64,000 nt of DNA from sequence record MT446415.1; one strand, 5' to 3'. Position numbers and translations under genes: made by a program. This document shows positions 41,638 through 63,353 of this stretch, piece by piece. Position 1 is the first letter of the stretch; each line of letters opens with the position of its first letter. The DNA comes from Escherichia virus TH44. Below the pieces are notes generated by a model. That model saw only the letters and a program-made list of their open reading frames with translations, was not told where the DNA came from and did not search any database.

Positions 41638-42092
41638 TGACATTAAATGAAGTCTCTGAAGGACTTTATGTTGCAGCCAAATTTTCAGAATTAACTCTTG
41701 ATGCGCTGGAAAATCTCCAGCGCTCTCTTAAAGTACCTAATCCCGTTCCTCGTGAAAAATTCCATTCCACTATTTGTTATTCCAGAGTAAATATTCCATA
41801 TGTTGTTGCCTCTGGTAGTTTCGAAGTAGCCAACTCTGGACATCTGGAAGTGTGGAAAACTGACGACGGCAGCACCCTGGTTCTTGTACTGAATTCAGAT
41901 TATCTTAGTTGCAGACATATGTATGCACGAGCCATTGGCGCAACACATGATTTCCCGGACTATACTCCTCACATAACATTATCCTATAATGTTGGTCCTT
42001 TGACGTATAAAGGAGAAGTTCAGATTCCGGTTGTTTTAGACCGTGAATATAAAGAACCGCTAAAATTAAATTGGTCGGCGGATTTAAAGTAG
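41637..42092 (+). CDS. 57B: gp57B-like protein
   Basis: 151 aa; positional homologue downstream of 57A. Confidence 0.7.
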
Positions 42093-42129
42093 TGTACAAA
42101 TGAGTGTAGGTGCAGTATTATGCACCTAC
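42092..42129 (+). promoter_or_regulatory. Early promoter stem-loop cassette (PeSL-like)
   Basis: -35 GTGTAC; 9-bp inverted repeat GTAGGTGCA/TGCACCTAC with -10-like TATTAT in the loop. Confidence 0.5.
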
Positions 42130-42152
42130 GTCAACGAACAAACGGAGTTAAA

Positions 42153-42485
42153 ATGAACATCAAAACTTACAACGAGTTTTTAGCCGAATCCGCCATCAAT
42201 GAGACCAAATCAATTGATGATAGTGAAGGCTCTCTGAAATTTGGTTTATCCAAAAATGCAGATGGTGTTTTCTTTCAGATTGGTAATGAACGTTTTCAAA
42301 CGTCCAAATATTCCAAAGCTGCAGTTGAAGCTGTCCTGAAATCTGGTGGCAAGTGGAAAGGCAAAGAAGGTACTAAAGAAATTGGTATCGCTGTTGACGG
42401 TGGTATGGCTTATTTTAAAATTGGCGATGAACAATTTATTATGTCTGCTCGCGGGCGTAAAGAACTGGCAAAACTTTATAAATAA
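42153..42485 (+). CDS. Internal-protein-like small protein with capsid-targeting-type N-terminus
   Basis: Trimmed start MNIKTYNEFLAES (GGAG RBS); N-terminus resembles T4 IP leader MKTYQEFIAE. Confidence 0.7.
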   Translation: MNIKTYNEFLAESAINETKSIDDSEGSLKFGLSKNADGVFFQIGNERFQTSKYSKAAVEAVLKSGGKWKGKEGTKEIGIAVDGGMAYFKIGDEQFIMSARGRKELAKLYK

Positions 42486-42493
42486 GGTTTCTT

Positions 42494-42766
42494 ATGAAAA
42501 CTTTCAATGAATTTTTCAACGAGTCACAACTGAATGAAGAAGTAAAAATTAGTAAAGCAGTCAAATCTATGATTGACAATATCAATCACCTGTATAGCAT
42601 TGACTTGACTGACCATATAACAATTGGTAACAAACGCAACTTTTTCGCGTTTGACATTTCAGAACTTGACCAGAACCAAATTAATAACATTGAGCGTTTT
42701 GCCAATGACAAGGGTCTCCGTCATGAGACGGCTGGTTATAAAAAATATGCAATTTATCTAAAATAG
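42494..42766 (+). CDS. Internal-protein-like small protein
   Basis: 90 aa; N-terminus MKTFNEFFNES. Confidence 0.7.
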   Translation: MKTFNEFFNESQLNEEVKISKAVKSMIDNINHLYSIDLTDHITIGNKRNFFAFDISELDQNQINNIERFANDKGLRHETAGYKKYAIYLK

Positions 42767-42774
42767 GATTTCAA

Positions 42775-43074
42775 ATGCAAACGCTCCATGAATTTTTAGT
42801 AGAAAACAATTACCTGGCAGAAGCAAAAACCTGGCCTCTGGGTCTTCAGAAGAAAAACACTTTCAAATGGGTTGACTTCAAAGGTAAAGGTGACGAAGAA
42901 GATTTTATGCAACTGCGTAAAAATGGTTATACCTTCCTTGACTCCAACTATAACAAAATTACCTCTTTTAGTCAGAAGTCAAGCATTGCCTTCATTGAAA
43001 CTGGTAAGAACTCTCCTAAAGATATTTCTGACGACTTCGCCGCTTATGGTGTAATTCGTGGCGGTAAGATGTAA
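42775..43074 (+). CDS. Internal-protein-like small protein
   Basis: 99 aa; N-terminus MQTLHEFLVEN. Confidence 0.65.
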   Translation: MQTLHEFLVENNYLAEAKTWPLGLQKKNTFKWVDFKGKGDEEDFMQLRKNGYTFLDSNYNKITSFSQKSSIAFIETGKNSPKDISDDFAAYGVIRGGKM

Positions 43075-43083
43075 ATAACACAA

Positions 43084-43105
43084 GGGGATAATTATCCCCT
43101 TTTTA
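43084..43105 (+). terminator. Palindrome GGGGATAATTATCCCC + T-run
   Basis: 16-bp perfect palindrome followed by TTTTTA; cassette boundary. Confidence 0.5.
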
Positions 43106-43120
43106 TGGCTTGGAGACAAC

Positions 43121-43363
43121 ATGAAAACTTATCAAACATTTATAACAGAATCTTCTCATGGTATGGAAGTTAAACTTGGTCAAGCCCTTGCTGAAGCTGA
43201 GCGTTTGTTTGCACGCATCAAAGAACTTGCTGATTCCGTAGATGCATCATCTTTTAAAGGTGACCAAGGCAAAGTTAAAGCTCTCCTCGCTCTTTGTTCA
43301 GACGCGGGTGAAATTGCTAAGAATGGCACCAAGATGAAAAAACGTCTGGAAGACTTAAAATAA
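43121..43363 (+). CDS. Internal-protein-like small protein
   Basis: 80 aa; N-terminus MKTYQTFITES. Confidence 0.7.
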   Translation: MKTYQTFITESSHGMEVKLGQALAEAERLFARIKELADSVDASSFKGDQGKVKALLALCSDAGEIAKNGTKMKKRLEDLK

Positions 43364-43401
43364 GTATACGCGATGGGATAACTGCATTATAATTATCCCA
43401 T
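43364..43401 (+). promoter_or_regulatory. Early promoter stem-loop cassette (PeSL-like)
   Basis: -35 GTATAC; inverted repeat ATGGGATAA/TTATCCCAT flanking TATAAT. Confidence 0.5.
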
Positions 43402-61494: not shown

Positions 61495-61676
61495 GTTTAA
61501 GCATTAGTCAGAAAAGTAGATTATTTGAGCTTATCCATGAGCTTTTGGATGAGCATACGGAAGCAAACGCCTTTTATGATGAATACGGTCCAATAGATGC
61601 CGAACATCAGGAAGAATTTGCCAATCGATTTGATGCGAAAGAAAACGAATTAATAGCTTATGTGAATACGCTTTAA
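61491..61676 (+). CDS. Hypothetical small protein
   Basis: 61 aa, translationally coupled. Confidence 0.45.
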   Translation: MSLSISQKSRLFELIHELLDEHTEANAFYDEYGPIDAEHQEEFANRFDAKENELIAYVNTL

Positions 61677-61685
61677 GAAGGTGAT

Positions 61686-62258
61686 ATGGCGAGTTTAATT
61701 TATCATTACGCAGCAATGAATGCAGGCAAAACAGCTTCATTGCTGACTGCAGCTTATTCCTATAAAGAGCGTGGAATGAGTGTGCTTTTGCTAAAACCTG
61801 TTATTGATAATCGGGACTCGGAAGGCGAAATTAAATCACGCATCGGTATTAGCCAGGAAGCAAACCTGGTGACGGCCGACATGAACCTGTTTGAATTCTA
61901 TAAATGGGCCGAGTCTCAAAAGGATATCCATTGTGTCCTGGTCGATGAAGCTCAATTTTTGTTACCAGAGCAAATTGACCAGTTAGCTCAAGTGGTTGAT
62001 AATTACAATATCCCCGTTATGTGTTACGGGTTAAGAACAGATTTTCGGGGCCAATTATTTCCCGGTTCGGCTAGACTTCTGGCTATTTCGGATAAACTGG
62101 TTGAATTAAAGGGCGTCTGTCATTGCGGTCGGAAAGCAACCATGACCGCTCGAGTAATCGACGGTGCTGCTGTAAAGGACGGCGAGCAAGTATTGGTCGG
62201 TGGGAATGAATCGTACGTATCTTTATGCAGAAAACATTGGCTCGAATTGACAAGCTGA
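61686..62258 (+). CDS. tk: Thymidine kinase
   Basis: 190 aa; P-loop MNAGKTASLL, VDEAQF, C-terminal CHCGRKA...C..H zinc motif. Confidence 0.92.
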   Translation: MASLIYHYAAMNAGKTASLLTAAYSYKERGMSVLLLKPVIDNRDSEGEIKSRIGISQEANLVTADMNLFEFYKWAESQKDIHCVLVDEAQFLLPEQIDQLAQVVDNYNIPVMCYGLRTDFRGQLFPGSARLLAISDKLVELKGVCHCGRKATMTARVIDGAAVKDGEQVLVGGNESYVSLCRKHWLELTS

Positions 62259-62265
62259 GGTTCGC

Positions 62266-62541
62266 ATGGTATACAAGGTTTGGACGTATATCTCTATTTT
62301 GATATTCCTGGTTTTGGTTTTTGTTCCGATGCAACAAGACCAGGAAAGGTATGAGCGCGAAGTTGAAATTGTTGCAAGTACCTATCACTCGTTCAACAAA
62401 GAGTGCCCCAATAAAAACGGAATAAGCCTGCAACAAGCATACTATTTGTCAACGGTCACCAGCCCAAAACAACGGGTCTGGGTTGAACGTAATTTTGCAA
62501 GTTTATTTTCAGAGTACTGCTTTAATTTTAAACGTCTATAA
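62266..62541 (+). CDS. Small membrane protein
   Basis: 91 aa; N-terminal hydrophobic helix WTYISILIFLVLVFV. Confidence 0.5.
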   Translation: MVYKVWTYISILIFLVLVFVPMQQDQERYEREVEIVASTYHSFNKECPNKNGISLQQAYYLSTVTSPKQRVWVERNFASLFSEYCFNFKRL

Positions 62542-62613
62542 ATACAGTTACTAACTAGTATTCCGCTATGTTAAGGCTGCAAAGCGTAATCATGACCAAC
62601 AATAGGAGTCCTT

Positions 62614-62907
62614 ATGGACCTTATTCGAGGACTTTCATTAAGTCTAATAATCCTGGGCTGTTTAGGCCCAAATCTGTCCTCTGCAACAGAGGGGAAGTTT
62701 ACCCAATATGCAGATAGTGCGATGAAGATTTATTCGCAATTCAAAGAACCAAGCGTGCACCAATCCGAACAGTTCTGGGCGTTTATCAAGACTGAATGGA
62801 ACAACAAAAGCCAATGCGAAACAGAAATCACCTGCAAAAGCGATGGTAAAGCTGCGGCGAGAGAGTACGCTAAATTAATGAAGGTAAAATTGGAAGATGA
62901 AATTTGA
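62614..62907 (+). CDS. rI: RI lysis inhibition antiholin
   Basis: 97 aa; signal-anchor-like N-terminus; SEQFW.F, C..E..C and AREYAKLMKVKLE resemble recalled T4 RI. Confidence 0.75.
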   Translation: MDLIRGLSLSLIILGCLGPNLSSATEGKFTQYADSAMKIYSQFKEPSVHQSEQFWAFIKTEWNNKSQCETEITCKSDGKAAAREYAKLMKVKLEDEI

Positions 62908-63280
62908 TGATTTCGTAACGGGTCGTGGGTCTGAGGTGGATTCATATATTGGGTGGCTATTAGTCTCTTTGGCTTATTTTAAGTCTGCTCATCTTGAAAC
63001 CAAAAGTTATGCCCGCCATAAAGCTTATGATTTCTACTTCACAGAAATCCAGGGTCCACTCGACCAGTTCAGTGAGCAATGGTTAGGTTACAGCGGGAAA
63101 CAATACAAAGCTGCATTACCGTCCGCCTCGGACTTGCCGAAAGATACAATTTTGTTTTTAGATGAAATGATTAAAAGCTCGGAAAGAGTCTATAAAGTTG
63201 TACCCAAGGCTATTCAATCGACTCTGGACGATATCGTTGGAGTTTTCTTTCAGACTAAGTATCTGTTAACACTAGAGTAA
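62897..63280 (+). CDS. Hypothetical protein
   Basis: 127 aa overlapping rI stop. Confidence 0.5.
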   Translation: MKFDDFVTGRGSEVDSYIGWLLVSLAYFKSAHLETKSYARHKAYDFYFTEIQGPLDQFSEQWLGYSGKQYKAALPSASDLPKDTILFLDEMIKSSERVYKVVPKAIQSTLDDIVGVFFQTKYLLTLE

Positions 63281-63287
63281 TTCAAAA

Positions 63288-63314
63288 GGTCTGCCTTCGG
63301 GTGGACCTTTTTTC
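63288..63314 (+). terminator. Rho-independent terminator (UUCG loop)
   Basis: GGTCTGCC-TTCG-GGTGGACC followed by TTTTTTC. Confidence 0.7.
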
Positions 63315-63323
63315 ATTTAGGGG

Positions 63324-63353
63324 GTTTACAACACCATAAAAAGGGTGTACTAT
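63324..63353 (+). promoter_or_regulatory. Early promoter cassette (-35 GTTTAC)
   Basis: GTTTAC, about 18-nt spacer, TACTAT/TATTAT, then tatcccatcaactactgaggagaacacaATG leader. Confidence 0.5.

Follow-up and report, generated by a model that had tools for sequence, protein, structure and literature searches.

Repeated early-promoter cassettes of probable PeSL type in the accessory gene region of the T-even phage Escherichia virus TH44

What are the repeated intergenic sequences that punctuate the early region of the T-even phage Escherichia virus TH44, and what would be the role of the hairpin that surrounds the promoter in many of them? The window considered here is a 64,000-nt stretch of this phage (sequence record MT446415.1; Tevenvirinae, genus Gaprivervirus), and the sequences in question, referred to below as cassettes, lie between 42092 and 63353, in the region 57B-ip-tRNA-e-denV-regB-tk. 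Each cassette spans 55–85 nt, from the stop codon of one gene to the ATG of the next. The cassettes are very probably composite regulatory elements of the promoter-early stem-loop (PeSL) type, a class with a published definition (Arbiol et al., 2010, PMC2839356; Comeau et al., 2014, PMC4122927). In this reading the host sigma70 RNA polymerase would recognize a T4-type early promoter preceded by a short A/T-rich tract. At about two-thirds of the sites an inverted repeat would place its 5' arm in the promoter spacer and its 3' arm in the C-rich segment between the -10 box and the start, and a short conserved leader would follow, ending in a GGAG-type Shine-Dalgarno (SD) sequence that often fits the consensus of the RegB endoribonuclease.

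Promoters were sought on both strands as GT[T/G]TAC, a gap of 17–18 nt, and a TATAAT-like box whose second position is A and whose sixth is T. When no more than one mismatch in total is allowed, the + strand of 42–64 kb contains 12 such sites, where dinucleotide shuffles average 0.20 and never exceed 3, and the - strand of the same interval contains none. At most two mismatches, combined with inspection by eye, give 15 early-type sites on the + strand between 42.0 and 63.4 kb (42092, 43364, 43697, 44007, 47239, 47758, 48126, 48653, 52259, 53460, 56264, 56725, 57051, 59410, and 63324), and a 16th cassette is the stem-loop site at 49035, which has a MotA-box-like motif. Read as TGTACA/TTTACW, the -35 boxes of the early promoters are followed by a spacer of 16–17 nt. 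A generic sigma70 scan (TTGACA/TATAAT) is uninformative, returning 65 sites where 58.5 are expected, and the signal is therefore specific to the phage's own -35 variant. Cassette sites number 16 in 42–64 kb, against 2 early-type + strand sites in the remaining 42 kb. Neither of these two outlying promoters, at 8768–8840 and 4495–4560, has a hairpin enclosing the -10 box; the first of them shares the CATAATGATTCCATACTGAGTTA leader with 47239, 48126, and 48653.

At most sites the stop codon of the upstream gene touches or overlaps the -35 box and runs of A adjoin that box, with a modest enrichment of A+T in the 20 nt upstream (mean 69%, background 61%). All 16 cassettes end in a GGAG- or GAGG-type SD and an ATG. 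For the 15 early promoters the predicted 5' untranslated region is 19–46 nt long, and the predicted +1, counted 7 nt from the -10 box, is an A at 14 of them. Promoter activity and the positions of the start sites are predicted from these motifs. The 63-nt cassette at 57048–57110 has blastn matches in 713 phage records.

The initial annotation of this interval had given at least fifteen sites a single architecture, with the -10 element in the loop of an inverted repeat. Promoter and leader do recur at 15, but the loop of a hairpin contains the -10 box at only about ten. For each site, perfect Watson-Crick stems that loop out the -10 box were sought and the longest was compared with stems from shuffled flanks; stems of 8–10 bp (P ≤ 0.013) were found at 42092, 43364, 43697, 44007, 47758, 53460, 56264, and 57051. 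RNA folding finds strong hairpins enclosing the -10 box at 9 of the 16 sites, these eight and 49035, with energies of -12.2 to -19.6 kcal/mol and z scores of -3.4 to -5.5; a moderate hairpin at 56725 and a weak one at 48126 come in addition. All five arm sequences that had been listed earlier exist, and the stems are longer than listed: 10 bp for GATGGGATAA / TTATCCCATC and GTGGGACCAT / ATGGTCCCAC, 9 bp for GTAGGTGCA, and 8 bp for GATAGGGT and GGGAACAT. The loops between the arms vary from 5 to 17 nt.

The geometry of these repeats is more constant than their sequence. In every case the C-rich sequence between the -10 box and the start site serves as the 3' arm (TATCCCATC, GGTCCCAC, ACCCTATC, GTTCCC, or ATTCCA), and this arm ends in the predicted +1 A. 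The 5' arm sits in the promoter spacer at three registers relative to the -10 box, apparently evolving to stay complementary to a 3' arm whose place next to the promoter is fixed. At least five unrelated arm sequences share the one geometry in the window (GGGATA/TAGGGT, GTAGGTGCA, GTGGGACCAT, GGGAACAT, and TGGAAT), GGGATA and TAGGGT being connected by compensatory changes, and eight relatives contribute further arm pairs, such as CAGTATGGA / TCCATACTG and AGTATGGG / CCCATACT. Orthologues of the 42092 cassette have a shifted stem, GTGTAGG / CCTACAC. The Gaprivervirus orthologues of the window's hairpins are all stable (-8 to -19.5 kcal/mol). Since unrelated arms share a geometry and orthologues show compensatory changes, the proposal that selection acts on the structure of the cassette, and not on the sequence of its arms, is supported by these comparisons.

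Single-column covariation over 33 cassette variants failed on account of the three registers of the 5' arm, and an exact-leader scan of IMG/VR returned 4 loci, too few to widen the set. An alignment of orthologous trna.4 promoters was used in its place, made with MAFFT without regard to structure and covering Gaprivervirus, Tequatrovirus (RB32, ECML-134, T4T), Mosigvirus (ATK47), and a Klebsiella Jiaodavirus (n = 7). The stem ATGGGATA / TATCCCAT of the window corresponds to ATAGGGTA / TACCCTAT in other genera by two compensatory double changes, and its counterpart in Mosigvirus and Tequatrovirus reads GATAGGGTA / TACCCTATC. The orthologous stem persists across three genera, RB32, ECML-134, T4, and ATK47 included. 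Three pairs are altered on both sides, and 82.5% of alignment cells pair, against 33–52% in slid controls; only 3 of 500 shuffles match the covariation score, a result that with seven sequences is indicative and not decisive. In T4T the stem takes a 7 bp version with the 5' arm relocated beside the -35 box, and in the Klebsiella phage it is mostly lost. When T4 is scanned likewise, repeats of 9, 13, and 14 bp enclose the -10 box at about 70338, 65779, and 57977 of its genome. By these alignments and scans, T-even genera, among them that of T4, conserve the placement of the -10 box in the loop, with compensatory changes in the stem.

Several observations weigh against this explanation of the cassettes. 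Folding finds no hairpin enclosing the -10 box at 5 of the 16 sites (47239, 48653, 52259, 59410, and 63324), three of which have a separate hairpin, before the promoter at 47239 and 63324 and around the -35 box at 48653, while two have none at all. Many of the hairpins are paralogous copies of a single GGGATA family, so that the independent observations are fewer than the sites. A hairpin acting in sense-strand RNA should bias one-sided changes in the stems towards G-U; these changes are G-U-compatible in 25 cases and A-C in 17, counts that are pseudo-replicated and partly confounded by paralogues; with no clear preference between them, a function confined to RNA is unproven. Finally, no U tract was found after the hairpins enclosing the -10 box, which are followed by ATCAACTACTG, ACAATCAATG, or TGGATAATAA instead.

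The lack of a U tract indicates that these hairpins are not canonical intrinsic terminators, and a terminator scan of the + strand calls none of them. Because transcription is predicted to start where the 3' arm ends, RNA made from the cassette itself would lack the hairpin, which would form only in read-through RNA arriving from upstream genes. In such RNA it would most likely act as an attenuator, a pause signal, or a protection of the 3' end; such a role was proposed, and in part demonstrated, for one RB49 stem-loop (Arbiol et al., PMC2839356). A hairpin of this kind would insulate the expression of a small early gene from that of its neighbours.

The leaders bear on the same question. Both leaders quoted in the initial annotation occur in the sequence as given, and a third family, (C)AA(C)TAATGAGGAAAATATTATG, is found at 52259, 52484, and 53460. 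Strong cleavage by RegB with S1 follows the consensus GG*AGRAYARAA (PMC3014915). The leader GGAGAATAAAA (also written ggagaataaaATG) fits GGAGRAYARAA, which would explain its conservation. Exact matches occur at four cassettes (44054, 47818, 48714, and 57098) and matches with one mismatch at three (48188, 56309, and 63372), all seven of them at cassette SDs. A regB orthologue with SD GGAG is encoded in the window at 59467–59925. In T4 regB is autoregulated and likewise has the SD GGAG. Cleavage of the cassette leaders by RegB is thus predicted from the consensus; a cut in the SD adjacent to the hairpin would separate and inactivate the downstream part of a read-through message, and the consensus match suggests that hairpin and cut site may act jointly. 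A stronger version, offered tentatively and held to be possible but not probable, makes the cassette a three-part RNA 'insulator', in which the hairpin without U tract would close off the upstream message at its 3' end and RegB/S1 would cut the adjacent GGAGAAUAAAA. Only complementarity to the fixed 3' arm would then be required, so the 5' arm would be free to slide. If this holds, the fate of each small early gene's mRNA would be set independently of its neighbours, and the retention of the geometry with compensatory changes, from Gaprivervirus to T4, would be explained.

Comparison with described systems places the cassettes in a known class recognized here in a new lineage, the genus Gaprivervirus; PeSLs in the literature consulted come from RB49/phi1, PST/T4, and nt-1/KVP40, and none were found there for Gaprivervirus, a genus that Comeau et al. 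(PMC4122927) did not cover. The sequence features on which the PeSL identification rested agree with the published definition: sigma70-like boxes about 17 nt apart, an A/T-rich tract, an SD with ATG, and chimeric cassettes at the indel junctions of relatives. A stem-loop within or next to the promoter is present at most sites, not all. The PeSLs of RB49/phi1 share with the cassettes the A/T-rich tract, boxes of sigma70 type, the stem-loop, and the SD with ATG, all of these intergenic; overlap of the stem with the -10 box is their commonest geometry, and they too form chimeras at indel junctions of relatives. They differ in a near-perfect TTGACA at -35, where TH44 has the T-even GT(G/T)TAC, and in stems of G runs and C runs, where TH44 has mixed sequence (GATGGGATAA and others); moreover, promoter, terminator, and mini-circle activities are experimental there, whereas the TH44 elements are known from sequence alone. 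The PeSLs of PST/T4 and the PeSLs and PmSLs of nt-1/KVP40 (PMC4122927) share a promoter consensus (TTTACW N17 TAYWAT, the PST/T4 type), the internal-protein and tRNA locus, and degraded 'half' elements beside indels. The PmSLs of nt-1 are a middle-promoter-like variant, of which TH44 has one. In PST/T4 the stem-loop is described just upstream of the promoter (PMC4122927), while in TH44, and at several of the scanned T4 sites, it lies around the -10 box.

T4 early promoters (PMC1524935; PMC2988021) have in common with the cassettes the sequence GTTTAC, placed at -36 to -31, and upstream elements rich in A/T. They also share a -10 box in which -11 is A and -7 is T, and they too stand 5' of small novel open reading frames (ORFs). 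The C preferred at -3 to -1 in early promoters of RB69, RB49, and 44RR (Nolan et al., 2006, PMC1524935) is also seen in the cassettes; published descriptions of the T4 consensus, however, contain no inverted repeat around the -10 box. Intrinsic terminators likewise have a stable hairpin a few nt past a stop codon along the direction of transcription, but they have a U tract, and the canonical ones in this region are separate features (47180–47196, 63287–63312, and 43082–43101). Lambdoid morons resemble the cassettes in pairing a small accessory ORF with its own promoter and hairpin; the elements described here differ in being repeated and mutually homologous, in the absence of a G+C contrast, and in exchange that is apparently homologous and not illegitimate. 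Relative to all of these, the conservation of the -10-in-loop geometry as far as T4 and its coupling to a consensus RegB site are modest additions.

Do the cassettes also move genes? A BLAST comparison of 38–64 kb with eight Gaprivervirus relatives yields 50 distinct synteny breakpoints, 16 of them in cassettes, which make up 5.8% of the sequence (5.5-fold enrichment per nucleotide; binomial P ~1e-8). In relatives, chimeric cassettes are found exactly where ORFs of the window are absent. A different cassette lies on each side of the ORF at 47828–48124. This ORF is absent from TH55, TH41, and SP18, which retain a single chimera combining the left copy's promoter and hairpin with the SD-proximal leader of the right, the crossover falling in the shared CCATACTGAGTTA.CAAATAAA. 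In VR20 and TH41 a complete cassette stands where the window has the palindrome GGGGATAATTATCCCC, a T run, and the extra internal-protein ORF at 43121. In SP18 the 53460 cassette keeps its conserved -35 box and SD, and another stem-loop, leader, and ORF have been swapped in between them; in VR20 an ORF body (43786–43993) is replaced between conserved flanks. The 8 deletion junctions whose overlapping homology reaches 15 nt or more (15–93 nt) all fall in cassettes or in their extension into the capsid-targeting sequence (CTS): in the internal-protein clusters the repeat continues over the ORF's first ~30 nt, the codons of the CTS. For several junctions the genome comparisons show recombination between cassettes to be real. 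In the proposed mechanism, repeated cassettes and CTS codons would supply homologies of 15–93 nt, at which recombination would delete, insert, or swap ORFs among relatives.

A rival explanation, judged unlikely, holds that the cassettes serve regulation only: they would be ordinary early promoters with overlapping hairpins, and indels would end there since those that respect gene boundaries survive. In its favor, 47 of the 50 breakpoints lie at gene junctions of any kind, and the share of junctions that bear a breakpoint is not significantly higher for cassettes (12 of 16) than for the others (20 of 39; Fisher P = 0.14). Because surviving indels end at gene boundaries, the 5.5-fold enrichment per nucleotide is largely a gene-boundary effect, and after the junction-level control it was toned down as proof of mechanism. 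Other repeats mediate deletions as well: an array of paralogues (51752–52003) and the T runs of terminators at 46603 / 47192. The same figures contradict the earlier claim that each ORF downstream of a cassette was independently acquired. Cassette-led ORFs are present in 8 of 8 relatives in 10 of 16 cases, including denV, regB, e.6, and trna.4, which are in T4 as well, and ORFs that vary among relatives are 6 of 16 with a cassette against 11 of 40 without. The cassette is a mark of an early transcription unit, not of recent acquisition. What regulation alone does not account for are the chimeric cassettes with crossovers in shared leader or CTS, which are direct traces of recombination, the confinement of all eight junctions with longer homology to these modules, and the experimental demonstration of recombination between PeSLs in RB49/phi1 (PMC2839356).

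A second rival, still less probable, attributes the repeated promoters, leaders, and N-terminal codons to tandem duplication of internal-protein genes followed by divergence, with no mobile cassettes. Eleven ORFs begin with a CTS, MKTYQEFI..E or a variant (MLTYAEFL, MQTLHEFL, MNIKTYNEFL), and are located in 42153–44006, 46151–46534, and 55995–57613; their products are likely injected proteins, they account for most of the variable ORFs, and several are found in only 1–4 of the 8 relatives. They do cluster as duplication would predict, at 42.1–44.0 and 56.0–57.6 kb with one more at 46151, and one pair (42775 and 56785) shares 34% identity from end to end. That pair is the exception, however: the bodies of the CTS ORFs are mostly unrelated, and similarity ends after 11–15 residues. 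The cassettes stand before unrelated genes as well (trna.4, denV, e.6, regB, and the ORF at 53517), and ORF bodies have been replaced between conserved flanks, as in the VR20 and SP18 cases above. Polymorphism at this locus has been traced to Repoila et al. (1994) by Comeau et al. (PMC4122927), and the RB32 record annotates Ip7 as 'flanked by 43 bp direct repeat'.

It is very improbable that the repeat acts in DNA, extruding as a cruciform or hairpin that tunes promoter opening or forms a target for recombination or endonuclease VII. The consistent placement of the -10 box in the loop, the perfect Watson-Crick pairing of arms of 8–10 bp, and the lack of a clear preference for G-U changes would suit such a role, and one RB49 mini-circle crossover is located in the loop (PMC2839356). 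Short stems with loops of 5–17 nt disfavor extrusion, however, and the position of the 5' arm is upstream of the transcription bubble, in duplex DNA. Where crossovers could be resolved, they are in leader or CTS and not in the stem-loop, and sites without a repeat have promoter boxes that are just as good. The idea that the repeat is an operator, bound by a dimeric repressor that shuts off early promoters, is rejected as having next to no likelihood, for although dyad symmetry centered on the -10 box is classic operator geometry and early-promoter shut-off in T4 is incompletely explained (PMC2988021), the arms are unrelated between sites (GGGATA, GTGGGACC, GTAGGTGCA, GGGAAC) and their spacings, with a sliding 5' arm, are too diverse for one sequence-specific protein.

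The individual cassettes, all on the + strand, illustrate how the PeSL architecture varies. The first strong example (42092..42155; -35 GTGTAC, -10 TATTAT, SD GGAG, ATG 42153) precedes the ORF at 42153–42485, and its hairpin at 42106–42129, GTAGGTGCA / TGCACCTAC, has 9 bp (shuffle P = 0.001, -18.3 kcal/mol, z -4.7). Two cassettes of internal-protein ORFs share the 10 bp stem GATGGGATAA / TTATCCCATC. One (43364..43421; -35 GTATAC, -10 TATAAT, leader ATCAACTACTGGAGACAAC, ATG 43419) heads an ORF beginning MKTYQEFI, with its hairpin at 43372–43402 (-12.9 kcal/mol, z -4.2) and breakpoints at 43367–43372; the other (43697..43754; -35 GTGTAC, -10 TATGAT, ATG 43752) has its hairpin at 43705–43735 (-15.3 kcal/mol, z -3.5) and breakpoints at 43687–43689, 43743, and 43786. 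The trna.4 cassette (44007..44066; GTGTAC, TATAAT, a leader with GGAGAATAAAA, ATG 44064) folds at 44019–44043 into the stem described above (-12.6 kcal/mol, z -4.3). The cassette on the left flank of the variable ORF 47828–48124 (47758..47830; -35 TTTTAC, -10 TATAAT, ATG 47828) has leader B, that is CATAATGATTCCATACTGAGTTA...GGAGAAATAAAATG, with GGAGAATAAAA, and a hairpin at 47770–47794, ATGGGATAAT / ATTATCCCAT (-16.7 kcal/mol, z -5.1). On the right flank of the same ORF is a weak-stem cassette (48126..48200; GTGTAC, CATAAT, leader B, ATG 48198), with the 6 bp stem TGGAAT / ATTCCA at 48134–48162 (P = 0.04, -5.8 kcal/mol, z -0.9).

Further along, the cassette at 53460..53519 (-35 ATGTAC, -10 CACAAT, ATG 53517) combines leader C (CAACTAATGAGGAAAATATTATG) with the 10 bp hairpin GTGGGACCAT / ATGGTCCCAC at 53472–53497 (-19.6 kcal/mol, z -4.3). 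That of denV (56264..56322; ATGTAC, TATAAT, GGAGAATAAAC, ATG 56320) has the 8 bp hairpin GATAGGGT / ACCCTATC at 56280–56302 (-13.6 kcal/mol, z -4.2) and breakpoints at 56259–56288. The promoter at 56725..56787 (GTGTAC / TATAAT, ATG 56785) starts within the 3' end of denV and serves an internal-protein ORF; its moderate hairpin lies at 56744–56767 (-7.4 kcal/mol, z -2.6). The cassette at 57051..57110 (GTTTAC, TATAAT, GGAGAATAAAA, ATG 57108) precedes an ORF present in only 1 of 8 relatives and has the hairpin TGATGGGATA / TATCCCATCA at 57061–57089 (-17.2 kcal/mol, z -5.5).

The stem-loop promoter of e.6 (49035..49104, ATG 49102) joins a MotA-box-like TGCTTTA (49035–49041), after 12 nt, to a -10 box TAGTAT (49054–49059), the site reading TAGTGCTTTA, 12 nt, TAGTAT; its 8 bp hairpin at 49044–49065, GGGAACAT / ATGTTCCC, has -12.2 kcal/mol and z -3.4. 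The consensus of T4 middle (MotA-dependent) promoters is (a/t)(a/t)(a/t)TGCTTtA, 11–13 nt, TAtaAT (PMC1524935). In VR20 the e.6 promoter is of the early type (GTTTAC, 18 nt, TAGTAT), with a hairpin identical to that of the window and a different upstream box. VR20 has an extra ORF of 399 bp upstream of e.6, and an insertion of 447 bp is found in VR20 and TH54.

Five early promoters have no hairpin around the -10 box. The one at 47239..47322 has leader B and at most 4 bp of pairing there (z +0.4), with a separate hairpin of intrinsic-terminator type upstream (47180–47196, then TTTTTT). Site 48653 (48648..48726; GTATAC, leader B, GGAGAATAAAA, ATG 48724) has its hairpin, AGGGGG..CCCCCT at 48648–48667, around the -35 box (-17.3 kcal/mol for the 61-nt stretch, z -2.2). 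That at 52259..52319 (GTGTAC / TATCAT, leader C, z -0.1) heads the variable ORF 52317–52484, which is flanked on its other side by a repeat of the leader at 52484–52500, and breakpoints fall at 52217–52320 and 52482–52485. Running into this promoter, in 52214–52283, are a mini-ORF of 12 codons, a strong SD, and a short hairpin (TATCACA..TGTGATA); the segment looks like a deletion scar, because relatives have 560–840 bp of extra sequence at that point. The regB promoter (59410..59469; GTGTAC / TATGAT, SD GGAG, ATG 59467), whose ORF is kept in 8 of 8 relatives, has the 3' arm sequence TTATCCCATC, and as the 5' arm is absent no hairpin forms (z +0.9). The last (63324..63384; GTTTAC / TACTAT, leader A, z -1.1) follows a terminator-like hairpin at ~63287–63312 and a T run. 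A degraded element at 43082..43101, before the ORF at 43121–43363, consists of the perfect palindrome AAGGGGATAATTATCCCCTT followed by TTTTT (-11.2 kcal/mol, z -2.9), with both the -35 and the -10 box absent. It looks like a cassette that has lost its -35 box and its loop, with the -10 box in it, and it resembles a plain terminator; it corresponds to a 'half PeSL' as Comeau et al. use the term.

The genes around the cassettes follow a familiar order. The closest megablast match to 41–64 kb is Escherichia virus TH55 (91% coverage, 94% identity), with further matches that include VR20, VR26, SP18, and TH41, all Gaprivervirus. By synteny with the annotated VR20 and SP18, the order is 57B, an ip cluster, trna.4/.3, two tRNAs (Met, Arg), and e.x genes, then nudE, e, a second ip cluster around denV, vs genes, regB, tk, rI, and mobD.x genes. 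All genes of the interval are on the + strand, G+C content stays at 0.37–0.42 throughout 42–64 kb with no compositional contrast, and the interval from 57B to mobD.x is the classic hyperplastic early region of T4. An Rfam scan of the whole window matched the two tRNAs only, so that hairpins and leaders belong to no RNA family described there.

Several neighbouring features were noted in passing. Directly 3' of the tRNA genes, after the ORF at 45678–45917, the non-coding segment 45913–46130 matches the T4 stretch with the small stable RNAs rnaD and rnaC; the matches (54 nt at 98% and 27 nt at 93% identity) are confined to the rnaD part, and the Rfam scan is silent here because Rfam has no family for rnaD/rnaC. 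Five small paralogous ORFs lie in tandem at 50963–52213, the first three terminating in W-V-S-S-S-x-x-C-stop and the last two diverged (W-F-N-S-S-M-S-C and W-Y-P-S-S-C); the member at 51752–51970 is absent from TH40 and TH22 through recombination between repeated gene ends. Between nudE and e, at a small hairpin (CCCCTATATAAGGGG, 55468–55495), TH15 has an insertion of 722 bp that could be a candidate mobile endonuclease gene. A long (~160 nt), G+C-rich spacer separates the last ip gene from vs.8 (57614–57775); its homology is to T4 vs.8, at the 5' end of that gene and upstream of it, and no significant fold was found in the spacer (z -0.3).

For the biology of these phages, the cassettes delimit early transcription units in an accessory region of mostly hypothetical genes, and they flag 11 probable injected internal proteins as candidate anti-defence factors. 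Gaprivervirus becomes a fourth T4-like lineage with clear loss, gain, and swapping of accessory genes by crossovers in promoter, leader, or CTS repeats. The junction-level control makes the cassettes one among several types of repeat that mediate gene exchange, and a promoter cassette before a gene is not evidence of its recent acquisition. The conserved geometry and the adjacent RegB site make a role of the hairpin at the RNA level testable in the T4 model system.

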